Shown here piece after piece: positions 2,758-26,513 of a stretch of DNA of 64,000 nucleotides. Position 1 is the first letter of the stretch; each line of letters begins with the position of its first letter. The stretch is from Nanobdellota archaeon (GTDB lineage: Archaea; Nanobdellota; Nanobdellia; Woesearchaeales; GW2011-AR9). The stretch covers positions 53,322-117,321 of the forward strand of contig JAUYPX010000026.1 of NCBI GenBank assembly GCA_030697505.1. Reading direction: 5' to 3'. The notes under the pieces were generated by a model. It saw only the letters and a list, made by a program, of their open reading frames with translations. It did not search any database and was not told where the DNA came from. The position numbers were made by a program, and so were the translations under genes.

Positions 2758-3933
2758 TCAGAGCCGCAGCTCCTGCACAAATTCTTCAAGGTAGTGAACT
2801 CCTTTCGCAAATTCGGCTTCATCTACTCCTAAACTTATTCTGATATGATCATCCCAATGTTCGCCGAAGACCATTCCTGGGGTAGCCGCTACCCCTTTGC
2901 TCTCTACCAGCTTGGTACAAAATTCATCTGAGCCCAACCCTGATCCAGAGATGTTGATAAAACAGAACTGGCTGCCTTGAGGCTGGACTAATGATAATAG
3001 GCCATTTTGTGAAATCATCTTCTGAAGTTCCAGAGCATTCTTCTGTAACAAGGTACGGAAAGAAGACAAATAATCTGCAGGTAAAGAAAAAGCGGCGCAG
3101 GCTCCTTTTTGGATGAAAGTGCAGACATTGGTATTGACATGATGCTGCATTTCTGCGATATGCTGCGCGATTGGGAGCGGAGCTATCACATAGCCTAATC
3201 TCCATCCAGTCATGCTATACGCTTTGCTGAAGCCATTTACAGTTATCAGTTTTCCTGCCAATCCCTTGACTGAACCAAGACTAAAATGGGTTTCATCTGA
3301 ATAGGCTAACTTTTCATATACCTCGTCAGAAAGAAGATAAAAATCATGTTTTATCGCCAGCTCAGCCAGCTGCAGCAGCTGCTCTTTTGAAAACATTTTT
3401 CCGGTCGGATTATGCGGAGTGTTGACGATCAATAATTTCGTTTTGGGAGTGATATTTTTTTCAATCTCCTCAATATCTAAAGAAAAATCGTTCTTGTTCA
3501 AGTCAATGACATTTATTTTCACTGACGGTTCAGCCAATTTCAATTGAGGGATATAGCTGGGATAGCAAGGAGCGATGACTATGGCTTCATCTTCCGGTTC
3601 TAGTAATGCTAACAAACTTAGATAAATAGCCTGTTTCGCACCAGTAGTCATGACGATATTTTGGATGCCGCATTCAATGCCATTTTCTTCGGATAATTTT
3701 TTCTTGATCAATTCTCGTAATTCCACCAACCCATACTTATGGGAGTATTTGGTATATCCAGCATGTAGTGCGGCGACGGTGCTTTCTTTTACCGCTGCAG
3801 GAGTTGGATAGGGAGATTCGCCTAATCCCAAAGAAATAACTTCCTTTCCTTCCTGAATTCTTTTCCGGGTCGCTTCGCTCACCTTCAACTGTAGAGAACC
3901 GCTAAAATCCATTCGTTTACTTTTATTCATCAT
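2758..3933 (-). CDS. PLP-dependent aminotransferase, class I/II (aspartate/aromatic aminotransferase fold)
   Basis: Motifs NTPHNPTG and SKAYSMTGWRLGY (PLP-lysine region) are typical of fold-type I AAT-family enzymes. Confidence 0.8.
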   Translation of the reverse strand: MMNKSKRMDFSGSLQLKVSEATRKRIQEGKEVISLGLGESPYPTPAAVKESTVAALHAGYTKYSHKYGLVELRELIKKKLSEENGIECGIQNIVMTTGAKQAIYLSLLALLEPEDEAIVIAPCYPSYIPQLKLAEPSVKINVIDLNKNDFSLDIEEIEKNITPKTKLLIVNTPHNPTGKMFSKEQLLQLAELAIKHDFYLLSDEVYEKLAYSDETHFSLGSVKGLAGKLITVNGFSKAYSMTGWRLGYVIAPLPIAQHIAEMQHHVNTNVCTFIQKGACAAFSLPADYLSSFRTLLQKNALELQKMISQNGLLSLVQPQGSQFCFINISGSGLGSDEFCTKLVESKGVAATPGMVFGEHWDDHIRISLGVDEAEFAKGVHYLEEFVQELRL

Positions 3934-5194
3934 TCCGTTTCTCTACCCAAACCGGTTTCTTTAACTTCCAAGTTCCATCCGCAAATTCCCAGAGATTCTT
4001 ATTGCGAAACTTTTCAATACACTCCAAAAACCGTCCCTCGGTTATGCCCAGGTAGTCAAGGAAATCCTGGAAATACTTTTTAGGAAACTCCTGATCAAAC
4101 TTTTTAACTAAAGCGACTGCTTCTTCGCGGGTAATTTTATTGTTCCGGCATTCCTGTGCGGCATCATAAGTAGCCCGGCCGATCCCAAATTTGACTAATT
4201 GTGTATAATAATGGAAAGGATCGCTTTTATCATCGATGCTGCTATACTTGGAGTAAGACCCTTCCGTACGTTCGGTGTTTGCCTCAAATCCTATATGCTC
4301 CACCGCATAATAATACGCTTCCTGAGGATCCCATTTAACATACCATCCTAAATAATGGACTTGAATACCTTTTTGATCATACTCTTCTGGATCGATGGGA
4401 AGATATGCTTTTAGGTCAGTCATGCTAGCTCCGTGCTTTTCAATTAATTCCTTTATCGGAACTCCGCCTAAACACATCTTGTCATAATCGGCGCCAGTAT
4501 GATAATGTTTTTTGCGTTGCGCCCCATCATTTCCTGGGTCGCCATAATCAACTCCTGGTTCTCCATAAAAGACCAGAGGGATATCGAACTTAGCGGCAAT
4601 CTTAGGCGCCAGGTTCTTCTGCCCTAAAATAAACGGTTGGAACGGATGCAATAAATTTTCAAATGCCAGTTTAGTCAAGAGTTTATGCACTTTCCCATTT
4701 GGATGAAAAAGAATATTATCAAACCCTGCACCAATCCAATGCTGCATATTTCGCCAACCTACTTCAGTATACATGTGCGGAGCCCAGGTTACGGTGAGAG
4801 GATTCATTTTATATTTATATTTTAACAAGTGAGCTACCATCACGCTATCCTTGCCGCCGCTGCCGGAAACAATACAATCGTGCGACCCATCGCTCTTTCT
4901 ATATTTGTCGCATAAATCCCATAATAATTTCTCTCGTTCCTGCCAATCGATTTGATTAGTTTTTTTTTCATGATACCGACAGGCCGCGCATACTCCCGTC
5001 TCATCAAAATCAATGGTCTCTGTTGCCGAATTAGAATTATGTTTAAATTCGGATTTCTTGGCTAAAGGCCGCTGATTAGAGATGATGCATTTCGTGCAGT
5101 ATTTGACCTCCCGTGGTAATCCGTAAGGAACATCTACTACCTCAACTTGTTCTGTTTGTTGATGGTTTACATCTTCTAATCTATTTTCTGCCAT
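3923..5194 (-). CDS. N-acetyl sugar amidotransferase (WbuX/WbpG/PseA/AglX family; PP-loop ATP pyrophosphatase)
   Basis: N-terminal Cys pairs (CTKCIISNQRP...CAACRYHEKK, zinc-ribbon) precede the PP-loop IVSGSGGKDSVMVAHLL. It sits next to HisH/HisF paralogs, the canonical WbuXYZ/AglXYZ arrangement. Confidence 0.75.
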   Translation of the reverse strand: MAENRLEDVNHQQTEQVEVVDVPYGLPREVKYCTKCIISNQRPLAKKSEFKHNSNSATETIDFDETGVCAACRYHEKKTNQIDWQEREKLLWDLCDKYRKSDGSHDCIVSGSGGKDSVMVAHLLKYKYKMNPLTVTWAPHMYTEVGWRNMQHWIGAGFDNILFHPNGKVHKLLTKLAFENLLHPFQPFILGQKNLAPKIAAKFDIPLVFYGEPGVDYGDPGNDGAQRKKHYHTGADYDKMCLGGVPIKELIEKHGASMTDLKAYLPIDPEEYDQKGIQVHYLGWYVKWDPQEAYYYAVEHIGFEANTERTEGSYSKYSSIDDKSDPFHYYTQLVKFGIGRATYDAAQECRNNKITREEAVALVKKFDQEFPKKYFQDFLDYLGITEGRFLECIEKFRNKNLWEFADGTWKLKKPVWVEKRNDE

Positions 5195-5203
5195 TTTTCC
5201 ACC

Positions 5204-6703
5204 TCATGCATTAGCAAATAAATTGAGCATATCTAATCCAAATTCCCCGCTTTTTTCAGGATGAAACTGGCATCCATAGATGTTTCCTTTTTTAAAAACG
5301 GCGCAGAATTTTTGTCCACCATACTCAGTGGTAGCCAACACCGTGCCCTGATCATCCGGGACGAGGTAATAGGAATGGATAAAATAAACTTTGGTATTCA
5401 AAGGAGTGTCGCCTAAAATAGTATTGCTCCAAGCCAGGCTTGATGCCGGAGTAAGAGTATTCCACACCACATGCGGTACACGGTAACCTTTGACAGCAAC
5501 TTCTTGCGGTTTCTTGAATCCGACCACTTTTCCTTTGACGATATCTAAACCTTGATGCCTTCCAAATTCTTCACTTTCACTCAATAATAATTGCGCGCCT
5601 AAGCAGATCCCTAAGAGCGGCTTTCCTGAGGCGACATACTCTTTTATCGCTGACGCCAGTCCGCGTTTCTCGAGCTGGGCCATGCCTTCTCCATATGCGC
5701 CTACTCCTGGCAATACCAAATGTGTCGCCTCTTTAACTTCCCAGGAAGCACAGACTATTTTAACCTGAGCTCCAATCTTTTCAAAGGCGCTAATCACGCT
5801 CATGATATTTCCAACACCGTAATCGATGATCGAAATCACCTTTCCTTTTTTCTTCTCATGATTTTTAACTTCTCCTTTTACGGATTCATGATTTTTTCTA
5901 AAAGATAGGTTCGTTTTTTCCTTTTCCAATGCAGTTTTAATTTCAGGGAGGGTAGACTTTTTGTAATGCAATATCGAGCCCACGGCAACCGCATCACAGT
6001 TTGTTTCTATTGCACATTTTACCACGTGCTGCGGATTTCCTGCGCCGCCAGAAGCAATAATTGGAACAGACACTAATGTTGAAATTTTCTGCATCAATTC
6101 AAGGTCATAACCAGATTCGCAGCCATCTCTATCTACAGAAGTGATAAGCAGCTCGCCTGCTCCCAGTTCCACCAGTTTTACTGCCCACTCCACCGCATCC
6201 AAACCGGTCCTTTCCCGGCCATTGTCTACATACGCTTCCCATTTTTGAGGGCCTATTTTTTTAGCTTCGATGGAACCAACAATGCATTGTGAACCAAATC
6301 TCCTCGCCGCTTCCGTGATCAATTCAGGTCTCCGAGTAGCGGCAGTGTTTATAGCAACTTTATCTGCGCCCGCATGCAACAGCTCCTGAATATCTTCCAG
6401 TTTTCGTACCCCGCCGCCTACGGTCATGGGCACATACACGCCTAAGGAGATCGCTTCTTTTACCACATTCGATAAATTATTTCGCCCATATAAACTGGCC
6501 ACGATATCAATATATAAGATTTCATCGGCGCCTTGCTCATAATATTGTTTCGCTAATTCCGCCGGTTTTCCCACTACTCGCAGGCCTTCTAACCTGAGTC
6601 CCTTTACAACGTTAGAACCTTTAACATCCAACCTAGAAATAATCCGTACATTCCTCATGAAAATACCACTATAACGGGTGTTTTTAAAGATTATGATATC
6701 CAA
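5204..6703 (-). CDS. Fused imidazole-glycerol-phosphate-synthase paralog. HisF-like cyclase/ammonia-channel domain is N-terminal and HisH-like class-I glutamine amidotransferase is C-terminal (WbuZ-WbuY-like).
   Basis: N-terminal half has IISRLDVKGSNVVKG, DEILYIDIVAS, PMTVGGGVR, GAGELLITSVDRDGC and PIIASGGAG (HisF). C-terminal half has IIDYGVGNIMSV, LVLPGVGAYG, GICLGAQLL and QFHPEKS (HisH catalytic Cys/His). Confidence 0.85.
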   Translation of the reverse strand: MDIIIFKNTRYSGIFMRNVRIISRLDVKGSNVVKGLRLEGLRVVGKPAELAKQYYEQGADEILYIDIVASLYGRNNLSNVVKEAISLGVYVPMTVGGGVRKLEDIQELLHAGADKVAINTAATRRPELITEAARRFGSQCIVGSIEAKKIGPQKWEAYVDNGRERTGLDAVEWAVKLVELGAGELLITSVDRDGCESGYDLELMQKISTLVSVPIIASGGAGNPQHVVKCAIETNCDAVAVGSILHYKKSTLPEIKTALEKEKTNLSFRKNHESVKGEVKNHEKKKGKVISIIDYGVGNIMSVISAFEKIGAQVKIVCASWEVKEATHLVLPGVGAYGEGMAQLEKRGLASAIKEYVASGKPLLGICLGAQLLLSESEEFGRHQGLDIVKGKVVGFKKPQEVAVKGYRVPHVVWNTLTPASSLAWSNTILGDTPLNTKVYFIHSYYLVPDDQGTVLATTEYGGQKFCAVFKKGNIYGCQFHPEKSGEFGLDMLNLFANA

Positions 6704-7610: not shown

Positions 7611-8279
7611 CTAAGGCCATGACAGGAGGATCTTGCGAAGATCAGTGAAATTTTCGACTATGAAACTTATTTTTGATTTATCTGCCTTTTCCATCTCACC
7701 TAAACCCCAGCCAACCAGGATCATCTTGGTGCCCAGCTTATGGGAAGCCTCAATGTCCGTAGCAGTGTCGCCGACATAATAGTTTCCCTCAAAATCATGC
7801 GGCAAAAAATGTTCTACCAAACGCTGGTATTTTCTATCAGCATGACTCTGCCCAACGGGAACTGGACCGGTAAAGATCACTTTTGAAAAAAAATCTGAAA
7901 TTCCCAAATTTTTCAGCTGATTTACACTATTGTTGATATTATCTCTTAGAGATAGAAGCACTAATTCATATTTTTTTTCCTGCAGCTCAGCTAGGAGCGG
8001 CCGTACTGATTGATGCAGCCTATCCATATCTAGATATCTGCTTTCTTCAAGAATAGAATTTCTATACTGCTTAAAATTAATGATTCTATCTGAAGAGAGA
8101 TGATATTCTTGCACTAATATCTGAGCATCTTTTATCCCTTTCCTTTTAAGATGGAGATATTTTTCTTTGGAGAGGGGAGAAATATTGATCGCTGCACAGC
8201 ATTCACAAAAAACAGCATAATATCGTTCACTTATATCGATGAGCGTGCCATCAAAATCAAAAATTATTTTTTTTCCCAT
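7611..8279 (-). CDS. HAD-superfamily hydrolase/phosphatase
   Basis: N-terminal DxDGTL motif (IIFDFDGTLID). A C-terminal GD..D motif is likely (YVGDTATDIEAS). Confidence 0.7.
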   Translation of the reverse strand: MGKKIIFDFDGTLIDISERYYAVFCECCAAINISPLSKEKYLHLKRKGIKDAQILVQEYHLSSDRIINFKQYRNSILEESRYLDMDRLHQSVRPLLAELQEKKYELVLLSLRDNINNSVNQLKNLGISDFFSKVIFTGPVPVGQSHADRKYQRLVEHFLPHDFEGNYYVGDTATDIEASHKLGTKMILVGWGLGEMEKADKSKISFIVENFTDLRKILLSWP

Positions 8280-8287
8280 ACAACCAT

Positions 8288-9313
8288 CTAGTTCAACAAG
8301 GTATAATTTCGCGGCAATCGCTGCCCATTTTCTTCTACAAAAACTTCATCCCAGTGCCTATACATCCATAATTTATCCTTAAAGTTCCCCAACCGTGGCT
8401 CTACTTTTTCGCCATTGAACAACTTTAACATCAGATAAGGGGTGTTCAAACCGCTGGCGATAGTATGGGCATGAGTGGCGCCGATGCGGGGATTTATCTC
8501 AAAGAGCAATGCTTCTCCAGTCTGCAGGTTTTTGAATATCTGGACGTTTATAGGACCGATCAAACCTAAATGTTCCACAATCTCTTTGGCCATGGTAATC
8601 AAGAGTGGATCCTTGACTGTAACTCCTCTATACGCTGCTCCGTATCTAACTTCTTCTCGAGTTCTGGGTACCACTCCGAGTACTCTGCCATTAAAATCAG
8701 CAGCGACATCGACACTAAACTCTTTCCATGCGCCCAAGTATGGTTGAACAATAGGTATCGGCACTTGACTTGCCTTTTCCTGTAACTCTTCTAAACTATG
8801 GATTACATGAGTGTGTTTTGAGCCGGTTCCTATACGAGGCTTAATGAACAAAGGAAAAGATAATCCGCCAGCTTTCACTTTCTCAACTGCTTCTTCCAAT
8901 AGGAAGGTCGGTACCGTCTTAAAATGGTGTTTCGCAAAATACGTGTAAGCGAGATACTTATCATCACAGATCTTAACTCCCTCAAAATGAGAAACCGCCA
9001 CCATCGTTCCAGTTTCCTTCTCTATTAACTGTTTATGTTGAGAAAGGGCCATGACTTCGCCGTCTGCTCCAGGAAAAAGAATATCTATTTTTTCCTTCTT
9101 ACATACTTTGATGATCTCCGTGACATAAGTAGGATCATCCCCGCGAGGAACTTTGTAAAATGCGTCCGTGAAATATCTGCCTGCATTATCATCCCGCGCA
9201 TCGGTGCTTACCAGATAGACATCAAATTGGTCCTGCTGCCGCACTCCTTTTATGAAACCTTGTGCAGCTACCGTTCCGATTCCCGTTATTAAAACTCTTA
9301 TTTGTTTTTTCAT
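8288..9313 (-). CDS. ATP-grasp domain ligase (carboxylate-amine ligase-like)
   Basis: Domain layout and motifs resemble CPSase/PylC-like ATP-grasp enzymes (ALLFEINPRIG... region, central Gly-rich loop). About 340 aa. Confidence 0.65.
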   Translation of the reverse strand: MKKQIRVLITGIGTVAAQGFIKGVRQQDQFDVYLVSTDARDDNAGRYFTDAFYKVPRGDDPTYVTEIIKVCKKEKIDILFPGADGEVMALSQHKQLIEKETGTMVAVSHFEGVKICDDKYLAYTYFAKHHFKTVPTFLLEEAVEKVKAGGLSFPLFIKPRIGTGSKHTHVIHSLEELQEKASQVPIPIVQPYLGAWKEFSVDVAADFNGRVLGVVPRTREEVRYGAAYRGVTVKDPLLITMAKEIVEHLGLIGPINVQIFKNLQTGEALLFEINPRIGATHAHTIASGLNTPYLMLKLFNGEKVEPRLGNFKDKLWMYRHWDEVFVEENGQRLPRNYTLLN

Positions 9314-9382: not shown

Positions 9383-10345
9383 CTATCTGGATTTATCTTT
9401 CTGTTCCAGGTTATCAAAAAAATGAACTACCTTTTTACCGCTATCGCGAGCAATTGTTTGTTGGACTTCCATCACCTGCGCCCCAAGGTGAGGGGTTAGC
9501 AGAATATTATAACCCCGTTTTGCTAGTTTAATGAGTTCGTGCTCGGAATGAGGCGGTTCTTCTTCAAAAACATCGGTAGCATACCCTGCGACGTGGCCGC
9601 TTTCAATCGCCTCCGCCAAGGCCGTGAAATCGAAGAGCTGTTCTCGGGAAGAATTGATGATATAAACGCCTTTTTTTAGCAAAGATATCTTCTCCCTATT
9701 TAGCAATCGATGTGTTTCTTTATTCAAAGGAAGATGCAGAGTTAAAAAATCCGATTGCCGCAGTAATTCTGGTAATGATACTAAAGTAACCCCATGCTTC
9801 GTAGCATATTCTTCAGTTTTTTCCGTATCCTGGGCTATAACTTTCATGCCATGGGCTCTAGCTCTTATAGCTACTTCAGTTCCAATCCTTCCCAAACCTA
9901 AGATACCTAAGGTTTTATTTTTAAAACTGCACCCGGTTAGTAAATCTCTTTCCCATTTTCCATCCAGCATCGAAAGATGAGCTTTTATCAGATTCCTGGT
10001 TAGATTCACTAACATGGCTATGCTATAATCAGCTACATTTTCTTTGCTTAGTTCCGGGCAATTGAATATCTGTATGCCCTTCTTATTTGCCGTTTCCAGA
10101 TGAACATTGTCTAAGCCGTTACCGGCACGTACCGCGCACAGTAGATTGGAGTTGTTAAGCAGTTCTTGATCTAACTTTGTTCTACTTCGGAATATGATTC
10201 CATCATAACCTTTAATGATCGCCTTTAACTCCTCTGCCGAGATATCTGAGCGAACATCTACCTCTAGTTTGGAGTTCCCTTCTTCAACTCCTTCCATGAA
10301 TGCATTTATATCAATGTTATCGCTGATCAGAACTCTTCGGATCAT
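9383..10345 (-). CDS. D-isomer-specific 2-hydroxyacid dehydrogenase family, paralog 2
   Basis: LGILGLGRIGTEVA Rossmann motif. Paralogous to 1796..2734. Confidence 0.75.
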   Translation of the reverse strand: MIRRVLISDNIDINAFMEGVEEGNSKLEVDVRSDISAEELKAIIKGYDGIIFRSRTKLDQELLNNSNLLCAVRAGNGLDNVHLETANKKGIQIFNCPELSKENVADYSIAMLVNLTRNLIKAHLSMLDGKWERDLLTGCSFKNKTLGILGLGRIGTEVAIRARAHGMKVIAQDTEKTEEYATKHGVTLVSLPELLRQSDFLTLHLPLNKETHRLLNREKISLLKKGVYIINSSREQLFDFTALAEAIESGHVAGYATDVFEEEPPHSEHELIKLAKRGYNILLTPHLGAQVMEVQQTIARDSGKKVVHFFDNLEQKDKSR

Positions 10346-10429
10346 AGTAAATGACCCACATTGACCTTATTTTAAATAAGTTGTGAAAGTCCATAAAAAA
10401 TATAAACAAAGATTATGCTACTACGGAAG

Positions 10430-11206
10430 ATGACCCAACATTTCGCCCAAACTAATATTCAGCTCTACAACCAGATGATTAAGGCTGGTTACCCTGAGTC
10501 TGATCTCCACCGCATAACTGAAGCATATAAACTTGCGGCTAAGGTCTTCGCGGGCTGCTATCGTCGCTCCGGTAAAAACCAGCAAGCTCATCTTATCGGC
10601 ACCGCCAGCATCATGGCCTGGCTCAGAAGACCAAGCATTTCGATAGCTGCTGCATTGTTGCACGCTGTCTACGAAGAAGGTAACTTCGGAAGTCGGATCA
10701 ATTTCAAGGAACTGCAGAACGCAACTTGTCCAGAGGTACAGCAGCTGGTCGCTGCTTACTATAAACTAAAGTGGTCGCATGATCTTAAGGAAGTTGATAA
10801 TTTGATCGCGCGTGTCAGTAACATGAATGATTTCTATCGTGAAGTAGTATTACTTCGCGTCGTGAATGAACTTGAAGATTATATCGATCTCGCTCCCCAT
10901 TACCATCTTGGAAGAAAAGGAGATGGAAGTCCAACCTATCTGGATGATGTTTCGCTGCGCAAATTCGCCCTTGCCCTCGGACAACCAAGACTCGCGAAAG
11001 AGATAAGCGCCCAATCCGATGCAGTACGAACGGCACAGATCCCCGCTAGCTTACATTATACATACCCGCGATTCAATCCCTCAGATCCCTACTGCCTTAC
11101 TATACGTGGCCGCTGGCGGCAGCTGCTGCGTAACTATAGAAGAATACGCAAGCCAGGACTGATCAAAATTATTCAAGCGGTAAAGCGTCGGTTAAAAAAT
11201 GATTAA
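10430..11206 (+). CDS. Rel/SpoT-like HD-domain protein with degenerate active-site residues (HD changed to HA)
   Basis: By-eye alignment to the (p)ppGpp-hydrolase HD domain gives YRRSGKNQQAHLIGTASIMAWL ~ [21 protein letters not shown] and AAALLHAVYEEG ~ AALLHDTVEDT. The ADRLHN motif is replaced by NELEDY. Start is placed at the second in-frame ATG (MTQHF), 30-35 bp downstream of an AT-rich TATA-like box. The ORF track starts at 10415. Confidence 0.5.
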   Translation: MTQHFAQTNIQLYNQMIKAGYPESDLHRITEAYKLAAKVFAGCYRRSGKNQQAHLIGTASIMAWLRRPSISIAAALLHAVYEEGNFGSRINFKELQNATCPEVQQLVAAYYKLKWSHDLKEVDNLIARVSNMNDFYREVVLLRVVNELEDYIDLAPHYHLGRKGDGSPTYLDDVSLRKFALALGQPRLAKEISAQSDAVRTAQIPASLHYTYPRFNPSDPYCLTIRGRWRQLLRNYRRIRKPGLIKIIQAVKRRLKND

Positions 11207-12309: not shown

Positions 12310-13662
12310 TCAATACCAATCAATGAGTAACTGAGTTATAACAAAATCAAGAACTTTCTGTTTATCTTCTTCAAAGCTTTTAGTTTCTACCCGCAGATCA
12401 TATCTTAGCTTGTTAAAGATCCCCATTTGCCTCTGCAGCTCTTGGATTGTTTCCGCTGGACGCCGTTGATGAAGAATCTCCGGTGTGTTGTATAATAAAA
12501 TAGAGATAGTCGGTTTAGGAAAAAAAGAATAAAGTTCTTTCTTCCACCATAAAGGAACATTTTTCATAAGTATTATATCGGTACAATAACGATCGGTGAC
12601 AACTATTCTATTGCGCATTCGTAAGGGAAAAACCACCAGCCAGTAACGCAGCAATAAATCTGAAACAAACAATAGCGAAGAGAAAGTATAGAAAAAAGAA
12701 CGTCTAGAAGAAAGATTGGCAGACCCACGCACATCTCGTTTCTTTTCCGCGCTTTTATATTTTCTGCCCAAGGTTGTAAAAGGTAAAATATGTCCCCTTC
12801 CTCTGCCCATGTAAACAACCGCCGGTTTTCTTTCGTTTTTCTCCAAATAAGCATGTAAGGAATGCACTAAAGTTGATTTTCCCGCCCCATCTGGACCAAC
12901 GATACTTATCAGGGGAGCTGGCATCAAAGGACGTTTCCATTGTATCCATCTCACCGTAAGCGCAGCAAAAGTAGTAATATTTTTAATTTTTTTAAATACA
13001 AAAATCAATAGCAGGGAAGGGATAGGAATTTTCTCGAATTGCTTCAATTTCATTAAACTTAGGATCTTCTTGGCCATGTTTTTTGTAAAAAGCATTGATA
13101 ATTTTTGAACAACTGCCTGCTCGTCTACTAATCCTTGCTCTAACAGTAACGACATCTGCTCTTGATATTTAGGCTTGAAATGACGTTTGCCAAGAATCGA
13201 ATGAACCAGCAGCATCAAGAAAAAATCATGGGCGCCGGGAACATAGAAAAATTCTTTTTTTGTCCGGTTGGCGATGATCGTTTCACCGATATACTTCATA
13301 TCATTCCAATATACTCCCCCTATCTGGATATCGAAACTCACTTTGAAACCTTCGACAATTTTAAAGTAAGCTCGATGTCTGAGGGAGAACTGTTGCTTTC
13401 GTTCCGTAAAGCCATGCAGGAGTAGAATTTGATTTACCCTCCCAAAATCTTCTTTACAAACCACCATATCTAAGCCTTCCCAAGGAAAATTAGGGTCAAA
13501 CAAAAATTCGAAATTGCGTAAGAGGCAGTATCCAACTCTACAATTATCAAGATCAAGAAATACTAATTTGAGATGCTCAAGAGGAACAGCATACTTGCTT
13601 TCCATTTGTTCCTGGTTTTTGTGTTGGTGAAAGGCCATATTCAAATTATCTTTTAGATTCAA
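12310..13662 (-). CDS. Two-domain protein. N-terminal uncharacterised nucleotidyltransferase-like domain (NTP_transf_5-like). C-terminal thymidylate-kinase-like P-loop kinase.
   Basis: N-terminal half has ...GYCLLRNFE...GLDMVVCKEDF (LKG...DiDlLV-like pattern). C-terminal half has Walker A IVGPDGAGKSTL followed by a DRY motif (VVTDRYCTD), characteristic of dTMP-kinase-fold NMP kinases. Confidence 0.45.
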   Translation of the reverse strand: MNLKDNLNMAFHQHKNQEQMESKYAVPLEHLKLVFLDLDNCRVGYCLLRNFEFLFDPNFPWEGLDMVVCKEDFGRVNQILLLHGFTERKQQFSLRHRAYFKIVEGFKVSFDIQIGGVYWNDMKYIGETIIANRTKKEFFYVPGAHDFFLMLLVHSILGKRHFKPKYQEQMSLLLEQGLVDEQAVVQKLSMLFTKNMAKKILSLMKLKQFEKIPIPSLLLIFVFKKIKNITTFAALTVRWIQWKRPLMPAPLISIVGPDGAGKSTLVHSLHAYLEKNERKPAVVYMGRGRGHILPFTTLGRKYKSAEKKRDVRGSANLSSRRSFFYTFSSLLFVSDLLLRYWLVVFPLRMRNRIVVTDRYCTDIILMKNVPLWWKKELYSFFPKPTISILLYNTPEILHQRRPAETIQELQRQMGIFNKLRYDLRVETKSFEEDKQKVLDFVITQLLIDWY

Positions 13663-13663
13663 A

Positions 13664-15151
13664 TTATTTTTTAAATACTTTTAAGAGGGTTGTTTTTAAT
13701 TCCAAAAAATCAATGATATTGAAAAGGTACAGCAATAAGGCATACATCATGGAAGCAAAAACAAACGCTAAAATGATCTCTGCATAAATATTGTATCGAA
13801 GGACCCTCGTAACATAAAAGATCATCATGACAAAAACTGCGGCGCTTAAGCATAGTTTGAACCAGTGCAGATAAGGCGAGGGAACGCCTACAGATTTCAT
13901 TAACGTATGTGTTGAAAGGATAAGAGTCAGTAGATAAGCCAAAGAGGTCGCTATCGCTGCCCCCGTAATGCCGTATAAAGGGATCAGAAAGAGGTTTAAA
14001 ACGACATTTAATAAAGCGGAAATTAATATGATTTTAGTGACCGTCTTCGGTTGGCCCATGCTGGAGATGATGATATTATTCACCGAAGCGATGATGAAAA
14101 ACATCGAGCCGACTAAAAGGATACGGAAAGCCAAGGTCCCCACCACGTATTCTTTCCCAAAGAAAACCAGCAGATAGTGGTCTGCAAACGCAAAAAGAAT
14201 AAAGATTAAAGGGATTATCAACGCCAGAGTATATTTATGCAGCAGTGAAATGCCTTTAGCTAGATTTTTAAAATCTTTTTTAAACGAAAGTTCGGTGGAG
14301 ATAGGAAAGACTATCGCTGAAATAGCCCTGCTGACGTGGATAAAGAAAAGAGAGGTGGGGAGGACAACATTGTAGATGCCCACTTCAGATAAAGAGCTGA
14401 AATGGGTCAGCATGATGGTATCAGTATAGGCAATGATCTTTCCACCGATATCCGCAGCCATCAATGGCAATCCGAATAGCAGAAGATCGCGGCTCATCTC
14501 TTTGAGATGTATCACCCGGTGCTTAAAAAAATAAAGTTTGCCTTGGATGAAAGGCTGAAATATGGCAAATAAGACTATGCAGACCAAAGCATACGGAATC
14601 GCTGCGGCCAGGATGCCAAGATTATAACGAAAAAGAATAAGAGTGAGCAGCAATATGAACAGATTTTTCACCGGTTCCATCAAGGAATAAGGGATGCTTT
14701 CTTGAAATCCATTAAAGAGCATCTTGGTGATGATGAACAAGAAACTGGTCATAGTGTATACGACGAGGATCAAAAGAATGATTTTAGATTCTGGAACTTT
14801 AAAATAATGTGTGGAAAGATACCCGGAGAAGATGATGATCAATATGCCGATGATTGAAGAGCTTGCCAGTTGCAGGCAGAAAACCGAAACGATCGCCGTC
14901 TTTATCTCGTTATACTTATTCTCAATCCTAAATTTAGCGATAAAGTTGACCAGCGCGCTGCCTAGGCCCAGATCACGGAAAAACAAGAAAAAAAGAATGA
15001 AGGTTAGCACGGCAGAGAATAGGCCATATTGTTCAGGCCCTAGTTTTCTGGCCACAATGACCCTGGTGGCATAACTGAACAACGCGGCGATAAAAGTCAT
15101 GCCGAATACTAAACCAATGCTTCTTAAGATCTTGCCCAGATGATTAGCCAT
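13664..15151 (-). CDS. Wzx-like oligosaccharide flippase (MOP/polysaccharide biosynthesis protein family)
   Basis: 495 aa with about 12-14 predicted TM helices. The N-terminus (KLGPEQYGLFSAVLTFILFF...) is typical of the PF01943-like family. Confidence 0.75.
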   Translation of the reverse strand: MANHLGKILRSIGLVFGMTFIAALFSYATRVIVARKLGPEQYGLFSAVLTFILFFLFFRDLGLGSALVNFIAKFRIENKYNEIKTAIVSVFCLQLASSSIIGILIIIFSGYLSTHYFKVPESKIILLILVVYTMTSFLFIITKMLFNGFQESIPYSLMEPVKNLFILLLTLILFRYNLGILAAAIPYALVCIVLFAIFQPFIQGKLYFFKHRVIHLKEMSRDLLLFGLPLMAADIGGKIIAYTDTIMLTHFSSLSEVGIYNVVLPTSLFFIHVSRAISAIVFPISTELSFKKDFKNLAKGISLLHKYTLALIIPLIFILFAFADHYLLVFFGKEYVVGTLAFRILLVGSMFFIIASVNNIIISSMGQPKTVTKIILISALLNVVLNLFLIPLYGITGAAIATSLAYLLTLILSTHTLMKSVGVPSPYLHWFKLCLSAAVFVMMIFYVTRVLRYNIYAEIILAFVFASMMYALLLYLFNIIDFLELKTTLLKVFKK

Positions 15152-15418: not shown

Positions 15419-16690
15419 ATGAAGATGATCGTACGAGAGCGGTGCAGGGTAGACGATAGTGAACTCATTGAGTTATTTGATCTAGGAGAGTTATATCTCT
15501 CCCATTTTCAAGATCCCCGCCAGCCGCCGCAACAGCCGAAAGTTCCATTGGTTCTTTGTATGGGAAAAGACAGCAAGATGGTGCAGCTCAAACATAGCGC
15601 CCCTTCTTCTAATATGTACGAAGAATACTGGTACCGCTCCGGGATCAACCAGACTATGGCTGCTGAGTTGAAGTCTATCGCTGCCTCTGTATTGGAGACG
15701 ATGCCATTAAAAGAAAAGGATATCGTTGTCGATGTCGGCTGCAATGACGGGACTTTAGTCAAGAATTATCCGAAGCATCTTACTATTGTAGGTTTTGATC
15801 CTGCTAAAAATTTATATCAATATTCTTCTCAGCACACCACTAAAACTATAGTCAATTATTTTTCAGCAGAAGAATATTTCAAGCACTTTCAAGAGAAAGC
15901 AAAAGTCTTGACCAGTATCGCCATGTTTTATGATTTAGAAGATCCTAATAGATTTGTAAGCGACGTTTATAAAGTTCTAGATCAAGAAGGTTTGTGGATT
16001 ATCCAGATGAGTTATTTGCCCTTGATGCTGAAACAGATGGCTTTTGATAATATTTGTCACGAACATCTGGAATATTACTCGCTGCAAAGCCTAGCCTATC
16101 TCTTAGAACGGCATGATTTTAAGGTAGTAGATTGCCAGCTCAACGACATCAATGGGGGAAGTTATCGCATCTACATCCGCAAAAAAAATGCTAATCCTCT
16201 CTTATTCAGCACCGCGCAATACCGCGATGTCGCCGATTTCAGGGTGCAGAGCATTCTTGAATACGAAAAAAGCCTGAGATTGGACCGGCCGGAGACGTAT
16301 TTCAACTATTTTGAAAAAATGAAGGAAATCAAACAGGAAACTCTTGATTTTTTACAGCAAGAAAAAGCAAAAGGGAAAAAGATATTCGGCTATGGCGCTT
16401 CCACCAAAGGGAATACTTTACTGCAATGGTACGATATCAACCATCAGAATCAGCTTATTGAAAAGATAGCCGAACGCAATCCAGACAAATGGGGTAAAGT
16501 CACCATTGGGACAAACATACCGATCTGTTCAGAAGAAGAAGCAAGAACAGAAAAACCAGATTACTTGTTTGTCCTTCCTTGGCATTTCCGTTACGAGTTC
16601 TTGAAACGAGAGACTGATTTTCTACAGCGAGGAGGAAAATTCATCTTCCCACTTCCCAAGTTCGAAGTTGTTGGCATAGATGACATCTAA
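15419..16690 (+). CDS. TylCIII-like sugar C-methyltransferase family (SAM MTase with C-methyltransferase C-terminal domain), paralog 1
   Basis: VDVGCNDGTL SAM motif, IAMFYDLEDPNRF, GYGASTKGNT and KPDYLFVLPWHF. Paralogous to 20665..21915. The N-terminal zinc-ribbon is degenerate in this copy. Confidence 0.7.
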   Translation: MKMIVRERCRVDDSELIELFDLGELYLSHFQDPRQPPQQPKVPLVLCMGKDSKMVQLKHSAPSSNMYEEYWYRSGINQTMAAELKSIAASVLETMPLKEKDIVVDVGCNDGTLVKNYPKHLTIVGFDPAKNLYQYSSQHTTKTIVNYFSAEEYFKHFQEKAKVLTSIAMFYDLEDPNRFVSDVYKVLDQEGLWIIQMSYLPLMLKQMAFDNICHEHLEYYSLQSLAYLLERHDFKVVDCQLNDINGGSYRIYIRKKNANPLLFSTAQYRDVADFRVQSILEYEKSLRLDRPETYFNYFEKMKEIKQETLDFLQQEKAKGKKIFGYGASTKGNTLLQWYDINHQNQLIEKIAERNPDKWGKVTIGTNIPICSEEEARTEKPDYLFVLPWHFRYEFLKRETDFLQRGGKFIFPLPKFEVVGIDDI

Positions 16691-19949: not shown

Positions 19950-20668
19950 AAACAGTTGCTTTGTTTGGGGCGAATGGATTTGTTGGCGGTGAAATTCTTA
20001 AAGCATTTCATCAAGCAAACCAATCAGCGGATCAATCATCAAACTATTCTGTATCTTCCATAACTCGGGAGAATTTTGAGAATTTTATGGGTAAAAGCTA
20101 CGACTATGTCATCAATGCGGCCATGCCTTCTGCTCGCTTCAAGGCAAAAAATGATCCTCTCTGGGATTTTCGCGAATCGGTGGAAAAAACGGCGAAAATG
20201 TATTATGGTTTTAAATGCAAGAAGTTCATCCAGATCAGTTCCATCTCTGCTCGCTGCCAGCCAGATACTATCTACGGCCGACATAAGCTTGCAGCAGAAT
20301 CGTTGGTGGATGACGGCAATAGTTTGATTGTGCGTCTCGGGCCGATGTATGCTTCTACTCTTTCCAAAGGAGTCTTGATAGACATGCTCAGAGGCGGCAA
20401 AGTCTTTGTCGGAGCTGATAGCAGATATGCTTTTGCTCCATTATCATTTATCGGCAAGTGGATTGTCAATAACTTGGATCGTAAAGGGATCGTTGAAGTG
20501 GGGGCAAAAAATTCGATTGCTTTAGGAGAATTGGCCAGGAAGTTGAACCTTGATGTGCATTTTGAAGGAAAAGATGACCATCAAGAAATACTGGGCCACG
20601 AGAATGATTTTCCAGACGTTGAGGTGGTTTTCGATTTTATGAGGGAACAGCAGAGGAAACTGAAATGA
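19946..20668 (+). CDS. Short-chain dehydrogenase/reductase-type NDP-sugar ketoreductase-like protein
   Basis: Rossmann ALFGANGFVGGE and YGRHK (YxxxK). 240 aa. 4-bp ATGA overlap with the upstream gene. Confidence 0.55.
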   Translation: MKTVALFGANGFVGGEILKAFHQANQSADQSSNYSVSSITRENFENFMGKSYDYVINAAMPSARFKAKNDPLWDFRESVEKTAKMYYGFKCKKFIQISSISARCQPDTIYGRHKLAAESLVDDGNSLIVRLGPMYASTLSKGVLIDMLRGGKVFVGADSRYAFAPLSFIGKWIVNNLDRKGIVEVGAKNSIALGELARKLNLDVHFEGKDDHQEILGHENDFPDVEVVFDFMREQQRKLK

Positions 20669-21915
20669 AAAGGCAAAAAATCAAGGCCTGCCGCATTTGT
20701 GGAAATGCAGATCTGATTCCCTGCATCGACATCGGCGCGCAGTATCTTTCCTCAATTTTTCCTGAAGATTTGAACTATAGGGACAGTTTACAAAAATATC
20801 CTCTGGAAATTGTCCAGTGTTTGAAGTCTAATGGGGACCGATGCGGGGTGCTGCAGTTGGCGTATGATTGTGACCTCTCTGAAATGTACAAATATTACCC
20901 TTATACGAGCAGTTCCAACACCTCCATGCGCAAGATTTTAGAAGAGGTAGCCAATAGCGCCAAGGCGCTCCAAAACTTAAAACCAGGAGATACGATTCTT
21001 GATATTGGTTGTAATGATGGCACCTTGCTTTCCTTTTTCGAATCAGAGGAATTCAATTTGATAGGGATCGATCCTGCTCAAAACATTGAGAGCAAAGTCA
21101 ATTCTTCGAAATTTAAAAGAGTCAAGGCTTTCTTTTCAGAACCATCTTTCAAAAGCGTGTCAAAGAAGAAAGCTAAAATAGTTTTTAGCGTCGCCATGTT
21201 CTATCACTTGAATGACCCGATCCAATTTTGCCGGGATATCAATTCCATTTTGGATGATCGAGGGGTAGTCATTATACAGATGGCTTATCTTCCTGCTATG
21301 ATCAAAACCAATATGTATGACAACATTGTCCATGAGCATATCGCTTATTATGGAACTCAACATCTTAAATGGATTCTCGACCGGGCCGGCCTGGAAATTT
21401 TTGACGTAGCGCTCAATGATGTTTATGGGGGAAGTTTTCGCGTCCTTGCCAAAAAGAAAGGAGACCCGACGTATAAAATCACTGACCGGCTTTTGAAAAA
21501 CTTGCAAGAGGAATTAGCAGGAGGGATTTTTGATAACCTTATCTATAAACGTTTCATGGAAAGAGTGGATTCCAGCAGACGTGAGTTGTGTGAAGTGATT
21601 GATAGATTAAAAAAAGAAGGAAAAAATATTTGGGTTTACGGCGCTTCCACCAAAGGGAATACTATAATGCAATATTGTGGGATCGGAGCTCGGGAGATAA
21701 CTGCAGCCGCTGACTCCAATCCTTTTAAATTTGGGAAATATCTGATCGGATCGGATATTCCGATACGGGATGAAAAGGCCATGAGATCTGAAAAGCCGGA
21801 TTATCTTTTAGTTTTGCCATACAGTTTTGTGCAGGCCTTTCAGGAGCGTGAATCAGATTTGATTCAGATGGGGACGCGTTTTATTGTTCCGCTTCCGGAA
21901 GTGAAAATTATCTAA
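20665..21915 (+). CDS. TylCIII-like sugar C-methyltransferase family, paralog 2 (intact N-terminal Cys4 zinc-ribbon)
   Basis: CRICGN...C...C N-terminal ribbon, LDIGCNDGTL, VAMFYHLNDPIQF, VYGASTKGNT and KPDYLLVLPYSF. Confidence 0.75.
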   Translation: MKRQKIKACRICGNADLIPCIDIGAQYLSSIFPEDLNYRDSLQKYPLEIVQCLKSNGDRCGVLQLAYDCDLSEMYKYYPYTSSSNTSMRKILEEVANSAKALQNLKPGDTILDIGCNDGTLLSFFESEEFNLIGIDPAQNIESKVNSSKFKRVKAFFSEPSFKSVSKKKAKIVFSVAMFYHLNDPIQFCRDINSILDDRGVVIIQMAYLPAMIKTNMYDNIVHEHIAYYGTQHLKWILDRAGLEIFDVALNDVYGGSFRVLAKKKGDPTYKITDRLLKNLQEELAGGIFDNLIYKRFMERVDSSRRELCEVIDRLKKEGKNIWVYGASTKGNTIMQYCGIGAREITAAADSNPFKFGKYLIGSDIPIRDEKAMRSEKPDYLLVLPYSFVQAFQERESDLIQMGTRFIVPLPEVKII

Positions 21916-24650: not shown

Positions 24651-26513
24651 TTATGTATTAATTATGTCTTCCATTATTTTGCCAGTTTCTGTCGGATCCA
24701 ATACCTCATAAATAGTCACATCTTCATCTTGATACCTTACTACTGCAAATGTAGATATATCTCTTTGCATCAGCTGCTTTTCATAAGGGCCGATGATAAT
24801 GTAATCTAACTTAAAAATAGGAGTTAACTCTTCCCAATTTACCGGTAAGGCGTGATAAGAATCTTTAATCTTCTGTTTAAATTCTGGCGGCATATAACAT
24901 CCAGTATTTGAAAAGAAAGCCTCGAAGGTGATGAGAGAAGAAACTGTCTCTTCATAAGTTGAATAATTGAATTCTTTTTTTCCCCCTTCGAGATACTGTT
25001 TTAAACTATCTCGAGTAGAAGGACAGGGCTTATGTAAGAATACAAAGTTTTCTGTCGAAACATTAAGAAGCCGATATGCTACTAATCTTCGCATTATAAC
25101 TTCTGAAATTGAAACTGATTCTCCTCGAGCACTAGGCACGTAGTTCTGGTTATGTGTATATATGGGAACTAAAAGGATCACATCCGAACTTAAGGTTAAG
25201 ACCACCTCATCAGGATCAGTATTCTCTGTTAGCCACGTAAACGCGTTCCGCTGGTAATCAGGAAGAGAGTAAGAGGAGTACATAGTTGTAGCAAATGCCA
25301 CCTGCCAAATAAGCCCAAATAAAAGGAAGAAAATCATAATCATTATTGGAAACTTCTGTACCATCTTTATCTTGGTTTGGCTAGACCATAAACTCATAGC
25401 ATGAACTATAGTCAAGATCAGTACCGGCCAAACCGCAGCCGAGAGCCATTGCCGATGATCGAGCGAATAGCCGGTTAATACTTGTATATTCATAACTGCC
25501 AGGCTGGAAAATAACAAAGTGATTATAAAGAAAAAATTTTCCTTAGATTGTCCTAATTGTTCAACTCTTTTGTATGAGTAGTAACTATAACCTATGTAAA
25601 AGGCCGCCACGACTAATAAAAGCGCCGAATAAGGTAGGTCTGGAAAGTGGGTAAATTTTGCTCCACTTAATCTAAGAAGCAGAGCTGTTTTCTCGCCCAA
25701 ATTATGGCGTGTAAAAAGTAAAAAATTAGTTATTCCAAAGGAGAACACAATTAATAAATAAGTCCCTATTTTCAATAGGCTATTTTTTCTCAGAACCGTA
25801 AAAGTAAGTAATAAAATTATGATGGCCATGACGGCATAGACAGTCCAATAATAGAAATAAGTAAAAAACAATAAGCCGCCGCTTATACCGCTCAAGAATA
25901 CATATTTCCATTCTCTCTTCTGAAGTAAAAGTAATAAGAATAACAAAGCTAAAGCAAAGATAATAAAGTTAAAAAGAACCGGATAAAATCGAGAAAAATA
26001 TCCTATCGGCTGAGCAATTTTATGGGTTAGGAAATAAAACAGGTTGGTTGCGGGGAAATATAACAGCGGCGCAGCCATGCAAGAGATTTTTTTATTTGAA
26101 GTTAATCGAAAAGCAATTGCATACACTAATAATGAGCCTATGAAAGGGAATATGAAAAAAGAAAAAATGTATATTGGTGTAAGCCCGCCTAAAATTATAC
26201 CTAAGCCTCCTAAAACCATGGCTGGCAAAGGTCCTGCGTGAGAAGGAATTGTTTTGTCCTGCCATTCCCATATTGTAGACCTTGGAATCAAGTGCCCTTC
26301 TATAACATCATGCACATAACCAGCATAAAGCGCCTCATCAGTTAATCTACCGCCAACACCCTTCACGACAAGCGGTAAATATTCTACGCCTTCGTCTTGA
26401 AGTAGAGGTATCAGTATATGCGGTAAGAAAAAAATACTTCCAACTAGAAAAGCCACTAATATTCCATAACGATGTTCTAAAATTACTTTTAATATTTTAT
26501 TAACAGATTTCAT
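24651..26513 (-). CDS. Polytopic membrane protein, PMT_2/ArnT-like GT-C glycosyltransferase candidate, paralog A
   Basis: About 14 TM helices. First-loop acidic motif TDEALYAGYVHD plus SHAGPLPAMVLGG (hPPL-like), as in GT39/GT83. Paralog of 32685..34541. Confidence 0.45.
   Translation of the reverse strand: MKSVNKILKVILEHRYGILVAFLVGSIFFLPHILIPLLQDEGVEYLPLVVKGVGGRLTDEALYAGYVHDVIEGHLIPRSTIWEWQDKTIPSHAGPLPAMVLGGLGIILGGLTPIYIFSFFIFPFIGSLLVYAIAFRLTSNKKISCMAAPLLYFPATNLFYFLTHKIAQPIGYFSRFYPVLFNFIIFALALLFLLLLLQKREWKYVFLSGISGGLLFFTYFYYWTVYAVMAIIILLLTFTVLRKNSLLKIGTYLLIVFSFGITNFLLFTRHNLGEKTALLLRLSGAKFTHFPDLPYSALLLVVAAFYIGYSYYSYKRVEQLGQSKENFFFIITLLFSSLAVMNIQVLTGYSLDHRQWLSAAVWPVLILTIVHAMSLWSSQTKIKMVQKFPIMIMIFFLLFGLIWQVAFATTMYSSYSLPDYQRNAFTWLTENTDPDEVVLTLSSDVILLVPIYTHNQNYVPSARGESVSISEVIMRRLVAYRLLNVSTENFVFLHKPCPSTRDSLKQYLEGGKKEFNYSTYEETVSSLITFEAFFSNTGCYMPPEFKQKIKDSYHALPVNWEELTPIFKLDYIIIGPYEKQLMQRDISTFAVVRYQDEDVTIYEVLDPTETGKIMEDIINT

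Follow-up and report, generated by a model that had tools for sequence, protein, structure and literature searches.

A Rel-fold protein without the HD aspartate, encoded beside a glycosyltransferase in a Nanobdellota glycan locus

What does a protein built on the fold of the (p)ppGpp hydrolases do in a glycan locus when the aspartate of its HD dyad is missing? The question is raised by a gene at positions 10430-11206 of a 64,000-nucleotide stretch from a Nanobdellota archaeon (contig JAUYPX010000026.1; 'the window' means this whole stretch), a very large sugar-tailoring region of a DPANN archaeon. An earlier note, made from the sequence alone, had described the product as a Rel/SpoT-type domain with a degenerated HD dyad, and hence as either a pseudo-enzyme or regulator or a repurposed fold. 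We found that relatives across many phyla share its unusual residues and that their genes lie beside, and are sometimes fused to, glycosyltransferase (GT) genes. The reading that we favour, while granting it a little less than an even chance, is a retooled Rel-fold metalloenzyme that tailors a surface glycan together with the adjacent GT. The features on which the argument turns are as follows, with residues numbered from the Met at 10430:

10430-11206, + strand: coding sequence of the Asp-less HD-fold protein, type A ('HA...N'), 258 aa
10445-10474, + strand: N-terminal motif AQTNIQLYNQ (residues 6-15), hallmark of the glycan-linked branch, located N-terminally of the part alignable with Rel
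10589-10591, + strand: His54, counterpart, by alignment of the translation, of the Rel hydrolase's first metal-binding His
10661-10666, + strand: His78-Ala79 replacing the HD dyad, aligned to LLHD of Rel (Ala79 codon 10664-10666)
10865-10879, + strand: Asn146-Glu-Leu-Glu149-Asp150 (NELED) replacing D-R-L-H-N of Rel, with Asn146 (codon 10865-10867) at the last Asp metal ligand
11099-11206, + strand: strongly basic C-terminal tail of 36 aa (13 K/R, 1 D/E) with two predicted helices
11293-12300, + strand: GT4 glycosyltransferase (Pfam Glycos_transf_1 / Glyco_transf_4), the conserved downstream partner

The homology to the Rel/SpoT hydrolase domain, proposed in the earlier note from an alignment by eye, was borne out by profile and sequence searches. 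Pfam HD_4 (PF13328) matched with an E value of 1.1e-7 (32.2 bits versus a cut-off of 27.2, profile positions 1-83), phmmer against the PDB returned the N-terminal domain of T. thermophilus Rel (E 2e-5), and a profile built from 102 family sequences retrieved the hydrolase domains of Rel, SpoT and RelA from the PDB with E values of up to 7e-17 over profile positions 20-232. The SpoT/RelA models of NCBIfam matched weakly and partially. In a structure comparison, full-length SpoT (7QPR) scored 18.2, B. subtilis Rel 16.0-16.4, small alarmone hydrolases and Mesh1 14-15 and a (p)ppApp hydrolase 11, with generic HD phosphohydrolases and cyclic-nucleotide phosphodiesterases below 10 and the HD oxygenase PhnZ at 6.6. 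Neither this comparison nor the family profile against the PDB found a solved structure from the family itself.

The same alignments fix the position of the unusual residues. Phmmer set 'aallHAvyEE' over 'agllHDtlED', and the family profile placed LLHAaY over LLHDtl and irLANeLEdh over vkLADrLHNl. Pfam, phmmer and the 102-sequence profile all keep one register, which rules out a shift that would restore canonical HD and D residues, also in the PF13328 alignment that the earlier note had named as a check. Where Rel has its two Asp metal ligands, the protein has Ala79 in the HD dyad and Asn146 in the LADRLHN segment, as the note had seen when it read HA for HD and NELEDY for ADRLHN. In S. equisimilis Rel, the residues at these positions are Asp78 and Asp144, and they bind Mn together with His53 and His77. 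The catalytic Glu-Asp pair of Rel is not kept either: the window protein has Glu82-Glu83, and the family varies freely at both sites (S/A/E/T and others, then H/Q/F/N and others). The protein therefore has the HD_4 fold and sequence homology of the RelA/SpoT hydrolase domain and lacks the His...His-Asp...Asp Mn site of Rel. Because the HD...D site and the ED pair are both absent, this scaffold of the RelA/SpoT homologue (RSH) type should not, judging by its residues, be called a (p)ppGpp hydrolase.

Compared with Rel alone, the window protein looks like an HD domain minus its catalytic residues, as would be expected of a lineage-specific, decayed small alarmone hydrolase, a relic or pseudogene without present function. 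The open reading frame (ORF) is intact, though, and orthologues at 58-70% identity retain every family motif. A single-sequence search returned 108 homologues, mostly bacterial and ~250 aa long, carrying PF13328 and PF20680 (DUF6817), and a profile search returned 1,140 clusters at 90% identity. When 1.84 billion representatives were scanned exhaustively with HMMER, 869 clusters (50% identity) passed E<=1e-30 and 1,627 passed E<=1e-10. The conserved motifs of this family are its own and are not present in Rel. A decayed relic is effectively refuted by these conservation data, and we regard it as extremely improbable.

Conservation was assessed in the 102-sequence alignment and in 88 further members from reference genomes (190 sequences). 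His54, Gly57 and His78 were invariant in the alignment, with 24 residues between the two His in 102/102 sequences, and both His were invariant in 88/88 of the further members. Position 79 was Ala in 80, Ser in 21 and Gly in 1 of the aligned sequences and A/N/S/G/T in the other 88, with Asp in 0 of 190. Asn146 (94/102), Glu149 (99/102) and Asp150 (90/102) were nearly as constant, and residues A6, Q7, T8, N9, L12 and Q15 of the N-terminal AQTNxQLYxQ motif were 96-100% conserved in the alignment. Given this strict conservation of the ligand residues, a repurposed fold is favoured over a decayed pseudo-enzyme: the second of the two options in the earlier note stands, and its word 'degenerated' is misleading for a family in which the His are invariant and residue 79 is never Asp. 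The alignments indicate a large conserved family that has HA (or HS/HN) as its fixed state, and the window gene is an ordinary member of it and not a one-off. A retooled, still functional metal site is highly probable.

Most homologues at 30-45% identity carry PF20680. The window protein reaches 14.5 bits against this model versus a cut-off of 25.2, compared with 32-52 bits for fused relatives, and by its sequence appears to belong to a divergent DPANN/Sumerlaeota sub-branch of a DUF6817-like family.

Positions 79 and 146 co-vary and define two types: His-Ala/Ser together with LANELED marks type A, and His-Asn together with LAD(H/Q)LE(H/K) marks type B. Asn79 occurred with Asp or Glu at 146 in 15 of 16 cases and with Asn146 never. 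Type A and type B genes stand in tandem in at least seven genomes (tandem or paralogue loci L024, L058, L060, L063, L065, L067 and L069), and the two types are also joined in single chains, in both orders (P0109-P0111 and two-domain representatives), which suggests A/B heterodimers in some organisms. No type B partner was found in the 64-kb window, where the type A protein studied here is the sole family member.

The genomic context of the relatives gives the second line of evidence. A scan for the AQTN motif, with one genome per species, yielded 111 relatives, of which 80 loci were kept. Their hosts are cyanobacteria, Acidobacteriota, Methylomirabilota, Proteobacteria, Actinomycetes, Planctomycetota, Nitrospirota, Gemmatimonadota, Chloroflexota, Sumerlaeota, a bacterium of the candidate phyla radiation (CPR) and DPANN archaea. 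Using iterated GT2/GT4 hidden Markov models, a GT was found within 6 kb in 60 of 78 loci and within 300 bp in 40, 33 of these on the same strand; all neighbour counts are approximate, as our own ORF calling is crude in GC-rich loci. Among co-directional neighbours assigned by Pfam, those downstream (n = 50) included GT2 (13), GT4 (3), SDR (5) and PP-binding (5), and those upstream (n = 49) GT2 (15), Wzt-type ABC ATPases (5) and Wzx (3). In a typical genome, only a few percent of the genes are GT2 or GT4 genes, so that the counts near family genes amount to a strong enrichment, as judged against that general fraction. When every gene within 4 kb was clustered, the neighbour families occurred in these numbers of loci:

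GT2: 47 loci
GT4: 27 loci
Wzt: 11 loci
FAD oxidase-like: 6 loci
SDR: 6 loci
Nucleoside diphosphate (NDP)-sugar epimerase: 5 loci
Wzx: 5 loci
AsnB: 5 loci
Sulfotransferase: 5 loci
733-aa carrier-domain protein: 5 loci
SGL lactonase: 4 loci

Individual loci show the same association. A Sumerlaeota relative (42% identity) lies between a glycerophosphotransferase gene and an overlapping GT4 gene, another relative stands beside NTP-transferase, Glyphos_transf and UDP-GlcNAc 2-epimerase genes, and a 2.3-Mb bacterial genome has two family copies in one polysaccharide locus, each after a GT2 gene. The family domain also occurs in single chains with other enzymes:

HD-like + GT2: L029:3645-5456
GT2 + HD-like: L076:4957-6738, L092:4816-6732, P0268, P0283, P0315
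HD-like + SGL lactonase (SMP-30/gluconolactonase-like): L060:6875-8167, L067:5992-7707
HD-like + NDP-sugar epimerase/dehydratase: P0258
HD-like + Mur-ligase (middle) domain: P0255
HD-like + adenylation-carrier didomain: P0299, P0312

Four further long 'fusions' (L011, L053, L071 and L072) were dismissed as spurious upstream ORF extensions. The gene fusions are the strongest evidence for a functional link. The association with glycosyltransferases, which the earlier note could see in a single locus, holds across phyla, includes these fusions and is much stronger than that locus could reveal, and the window protein very probably acts as a functional partner of GTs.

Partnership with a GT would also be expected of a non-catalytic pseudo-enzyme, whose pocket would bind a nucleotide or nucleotide-sugar and which would serve as an accessory or regulatory GT subunit, comparable to the dead hydrolase domain within RelA. 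Such a role agrees with the loss of both Asp ligands and with genes that are adjacent to, overlap or are fused to GT2 and GT4 genes in both orders, and the tandem and fused A and B pairs suggest obligate hetero-oligomers in which one half is possibly regulatory. The basic C-terminal tail, which may be a membrane-surface or partner-binding element, would suit docking; it is common only to DPANN and Sumerlaeota relatives and is without counterpart in most bacterial members. However, the metal-binding His pair comprises the most conserved residues of the family, Asn146 and Glu149 are nearly invariant, and 79 and 146 change together, although pseudo-enzymes usually lose such residues. Moreover, the fusions to epimerase, lactonase, adenylation-carrier and Mur-ligase domains fit a pathway enzyme better than a GT subunit. 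We consider a purely non-catalytic role improbable.

What might a retooled site do? In the reading that we favour, the gene would encode a soluble all-alpha metalloenzyme of the Rel/SpoT (p)ppGpp-hydrolase (HD_4) fold in which three ligands, His54, His78 and Asn146, have taken the place of the four in the original Mn site (His, His-Asp, Asp). Ala79 would free one coordination position, with Glu149 and Asp150 nearby. Alignment and covariation point to this site, which probably binds a single Fe(II) or Mn(II) ion. Its closest described parallel is SmaX, an atypical HD-domain oxygenase of the mono-Fe(II) kind, which turns beta-hydroxy-Asp into aminomalonate in peptides that are made on the ribosome and modified after translation (RiPPs) (Kim et al., J Am Chem Soc 2025; PMC12186529). 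As proposed for SmaX, with biochemical support there, the open positions could accept a chelating substrate and O2. The protein would then represent a glycan-linked branch of the DUF6817-like family, which is also SmaX's family, and would act with the adjacent glycosyltransferase on the donor, acceptor or product of that GT in the tailoring of a surface polysaccharide or glycoconjugate. It could, for instance, use O2 to cleave or oxidize a sugar, or an acid borne by a sugar, beside a hydroxyl or carboxylate, and the lactonase, epimerase and acid-activating fusions hint at substrates that bear such groups. We favour an oxidative mono-metal enzyme because the loss of Asp leaves a three-ligand site like that of SmaX; by this analogy, oxygenase-type, SmaX-like chemistry instead of phosphohydrolysis is proposed only tentatively. 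More speculative still, and to our minds rather doubtful, is a generalization to the whole glycan-linked DUF6817 branch (AQTNxQLYNQ...H...H-A/S...LANELED). It would form a new class of mononuclear non-haem iron enzymes for oxidative tailoring of sugars or sugar acids (for example, C-C cleavage or decarboxylation) in polysaccharide assembly, complexed with GT2 or GT4 enzymes, sometimes as A/B heterodimers, from DPANN archaea to cyanobacteria.

The favoured reading has several weaknesses. The family is present in presumed anaerobes and retains the 'RRSG' phosphate-binding segment of Rel, and the window protein has substitutions of its own at near-invariant family positions (F51Q, D85N and E104Q). 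The SmaX substrate residues His31, Thr68 and Gln147, which could be placed by offset only, were unmatched in the 190 sequences (the corresponding positions 46, 83 and 150 are P/A/G/R, H/Q/N/F and D/E/K), and Arg104 was unplaceable. SmaX is always paired with or fused to an iron- and 2-oxoglutarate-dependent (Fe/2OG) hydroxylase, in RiPP or non-ribosomal peptide synthetase (NRPS) clusters (PMC12186529). No such hydroxylase was found among the window ORFs scanned (~1.8-34.5 kb), and Fe/2OG enzymes are absent from the 25 commonest Pfam families of the 99 co-directional neighbours.

Alternatively, the protein could still be a phosphohydrolase of the Rel/Mesh1 type in which Glu149 or Asp150 gives the missing carboxylate. 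Its substrate, from which it would take a phosphate or pyrophosphate, would be an intermediate of the glycan pathway or a by-product nucleotide, such as a phosphorylated glycosyl acceptor from the GT4, sulfotransferase-derived 3'-phosphoadenosine 5'-phosphate or a 2'/3'-phosphorylated nucleotide. All of the closest structures are phosphohydrolases of (p)ppGpp, ppApp or NADPH, nucleotide-binding positions of Rel have their counterparts in R45-x-S-G and, for most members, in an aromatic residue at 51, and the acidic pair E149/D150 lies one helical turn past N146. Sulfotransferase or carrier-protein genes occur near some loci. The best PDB relatives of the GT4 in the window are BshA, PglA and MshA; BshA and MshA glycosylate small acceptors, and the MshA product requires a phosphatase, which also counts for this alternative. 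On the other hand, residue 79 is Asp in none of the 190 sequences, and mutating the HD Asp is the standard way of killing Rel hydrolase activity. The Rel ED pair has given way to variable residues at 82 and 83, and the main partners are GT2 enzymes of polymer-building loci and not of small-molecule glycoside pathways. We therefore think continued phosphohydrolysis unlikely. Action on a nucleotide-sugar 3'-phosphate, which the earlier note had offered as an example, found no support: Ala at the HD Asp is a classic hydrolase-dead substitution in Rel enzymes, and SmaX, which alone among characterised proteins has the same ligand set, is an Fe(II)/O2 oxygenase. According to the SmaX authors, HD-domain proteins without the HD Asp were not known earlier (PMC12186529), which likewise speaks against a phosphohydrolase.

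The retooled metalloenzyme proposed above is encoded by a gene whose start could be placed with the help of its homologues. The ORF call spans 10415-11206 (+ strand), and we preferred the second Met (MTQHFAQTN...) at 10430. Close homologues all open with M(T/D)QxFAQTN, the identical 258-aa protein at NCBI (P0001, 'HD domain-containing protein', from a Nanoarchaeota metagenome-assembled genome (MAG)) begins at the same Met, and a shortened gene call on a related contig has the same N-terminus once the upstream frame is read; the coding sequence is therefore 10430-11206. The flanking genes and signals are:

7611-8279: HAD phosphatase, after the ATP-grasp ligase
8288-9313: ATP-grasp ligase, after the D-2-hydroxyacid dehydrogenase
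9383-10345, - strand: D-2-hydroxyacid dehydrogenase, divergently transcribed from the HD-like gene
10346-10429: divergent intergenic region with an A/T-rich, TATA-like AATATAAA ~26 nt upstream of the ATG at 10430
12310-13662, - strand: 450-aa protein with NTP_transf_5-like and P-loop (thymidylate-kinase-like) regions, convergent with the HD-like/GT4 pair and kept adjacent in DPANN loci
13664-15151, - strand: Wzx-type polysaccharide flippase (Pfam Polysacc_synt), conserved in related loci

The position of AATATAAA would be compatible with a leaderless archaeal transcript. A scan for sigma-70 promoters, which does not apply to an archaeon, and for terminators gave counts equal to the shuffled expectation. 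The earlier note had placed the gene at an operon start next to a GT4. The GT4 neighbour is real, but the 86-bp gap between the two genes contains an A/T-rich, TATA-like stretch, and from the sequence a single operon of the HD-like and GT4 genes is not established in the window. In the DPANN relatives P0005 and P0004 (58-59% identity), the HD-like and GT4 coding sequences share 4 bp. DPANN loci keep this pair together with the convergent 450-aa gene and the flippase, even with a differing upstream block. The dehydrogenase/ATP-grasp/HAD block was rejected as a fixed partner: it occurs in P0005 loci and not in P0004 loci, which keep the GT4 pair.

Two related loci showed further peculiarities. 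In L001 (10066-16686; also in L002 and L003), of the DPANN contigs most closely related to the window, an AAA_14/DUF4143 ATPase and two TEN/YD-shell proteins, not found in the window, lie between the GT4 and a 446-aa convergent gene. In L014 (CAYIEF010000002.1), from a MAG labelled Methanosarcinales, the orthologue is 62% identical and the GT4 neighbour 78% identical, so that either the contig is of DPANN origin and was mis-binned, or the gene pair has passed from one archaeal lineage to another.

Elsewhere, the window contains two D-2-hydroxyacid dehydrogenases, aminotransferases, a deacetylase, and NDP-sugar dehydratases and epimerases. A partial ORF that leaves the window at its start (2-1795, - strand) encodes a CMP-nonulosonate synthetase fused to a NeuB-type synthase, and related contig L001 has a 980-aa CTP_transf_3 + NeuB + SAF + Epimerase_2 fusion. 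Because of the synthetase/NeuB fusion, the locus probably also makes a sialic-acid-like sugar. A fusion of HisF-like and glutamine-amidotransferase (HisF/HisH-like) parts lies inside the glycan locus (5204-6703, - strand); presumably it resembles the WbuY/WbuZ-type amidotransferases for acetamidino sugars and does not belong to histidine biosynthesis. Three ORFs of 423, 620 and 618 aa (3923-5194, 24651-26513 and 32685-34541, all - strand) had no Pfam match at E<=1e-3. Genes of the sugar C-methyltransferase type (15419-16690 and 20665-21915, both + strand), a carbamoyltransferase (27889-29649, - strand) and GDSL/AlgX-like acyl-hydrolases suggest that the glycan is unusually rich in decorations for a DPANN archaeon with a small genome.

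These results bear on annotation as well as on function. Database labels for the family are 'HD domain-containing protein' and 'DUF6817', and at JGI many members (for example, P0012 and P0017) are labelled '(p)ppGpp synthase/HD superfamily hydrolase'. This last label is probably wrong, because the Asp ligands are missing and the context is glycan biosynthesis, and it may propagate; it would wrongly imply alarmone metabolism in DPANN archaea and many bacteria. The chemistry probably differs from ppGpp destruction and is probably performed on cell-surface sugars. What emerges is a large family (at least 869 clusters at 50% identity) with a predicted, fixed non-canonical metal site and a very consistent glycosyltransferase partnership that includes fusions. 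If catalytic, it would add a step to O-antigen, exopolysaccharide and archaeal surface-glycan biosynthesis, and would extend Asp-less HD-fold chemistry, described for SmaX in 2025, from peptides to carbohydrates. That the window gene is an ordinary member makes the locus less surprising and the family more valuable as a target, and natural GT2 fusions and culturable cyanobacterial hosts make the family directly testable.

Among known systems, the RSH hydrolases and small alarmone hydrolases (T. thermophilus Rel, 6S2T; SpoT, 7QPR; Mesh1, 5VXA) share the scaffold, whereas in the family described here both Asp ligands are replaced, the ED pair is unconserved and LADRLHN reads LANELED. The family also has an additional conserved N-terminal motif, no synthetase domain and a glycan-locus context that extends to DPANN archaea. 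The pseudo-hydrolase domain of E. coli-type RelA likewise has the HD_4 fold without canonical hydrolase residues, and RelA chains are among the PDB matches; that domain is part of a multidomain, ribosome-bound synthetase, whereas the present protein stands alone and strictly conserves two His and the Asn/Glu positions. PhnZ, TmpB and MIOX are HD-superfamily enzymes with mixed-valent di-iron sites that cleave bonds oxidatively beside a hydroxyl, in the case of MIOX on a polyol that resembles a sugar (PMC12186529). The window protein is of the same superfamily but lacks their four His and two Asp for two Fe and, by its residues, is not a di-iron HD oxygenase.

The closest comparison is with SmaX. 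In the literature searched, DUF6817 or PF20680 was mentioned only in Kim et al. 2025 (PMC12186529), and no member of the glycan branch had been studied. SmaX matched only DUF6817 and HD_4 in HHpred, lacks the HD Asp, has predicted mono-Fe ligands His39, His63 and Asn143, contained 0.8 Fe and was active with Fe(II) only (PMC12186529). It resembles the window protein in its Asp-less dyad, in two His followed by an Asn on a later helix, in standing alone at a similar size, and in the His-His spacing of 24 (His39/His63). The equivalence of its Asn to Asn146 is judged by motif position. The two differ in the His-to-Asn distance (80 in SmaX versus 68-73 here) and in the place of the first His (39 versus 54), and SmaX probably lacks the AQTNxQLYNQ segment. 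SmaX acts on peptides, whereas the partner genes here encode glycosyltransferases and exporters of polysaccharides; in a few relatives the chain includes adenylation-carrier modules. Because the SmaX ligand pattern is shared and the partner enzyme, cluster type and substrate residues are not, the window protein appears to be a different branch of the same atypical kind.
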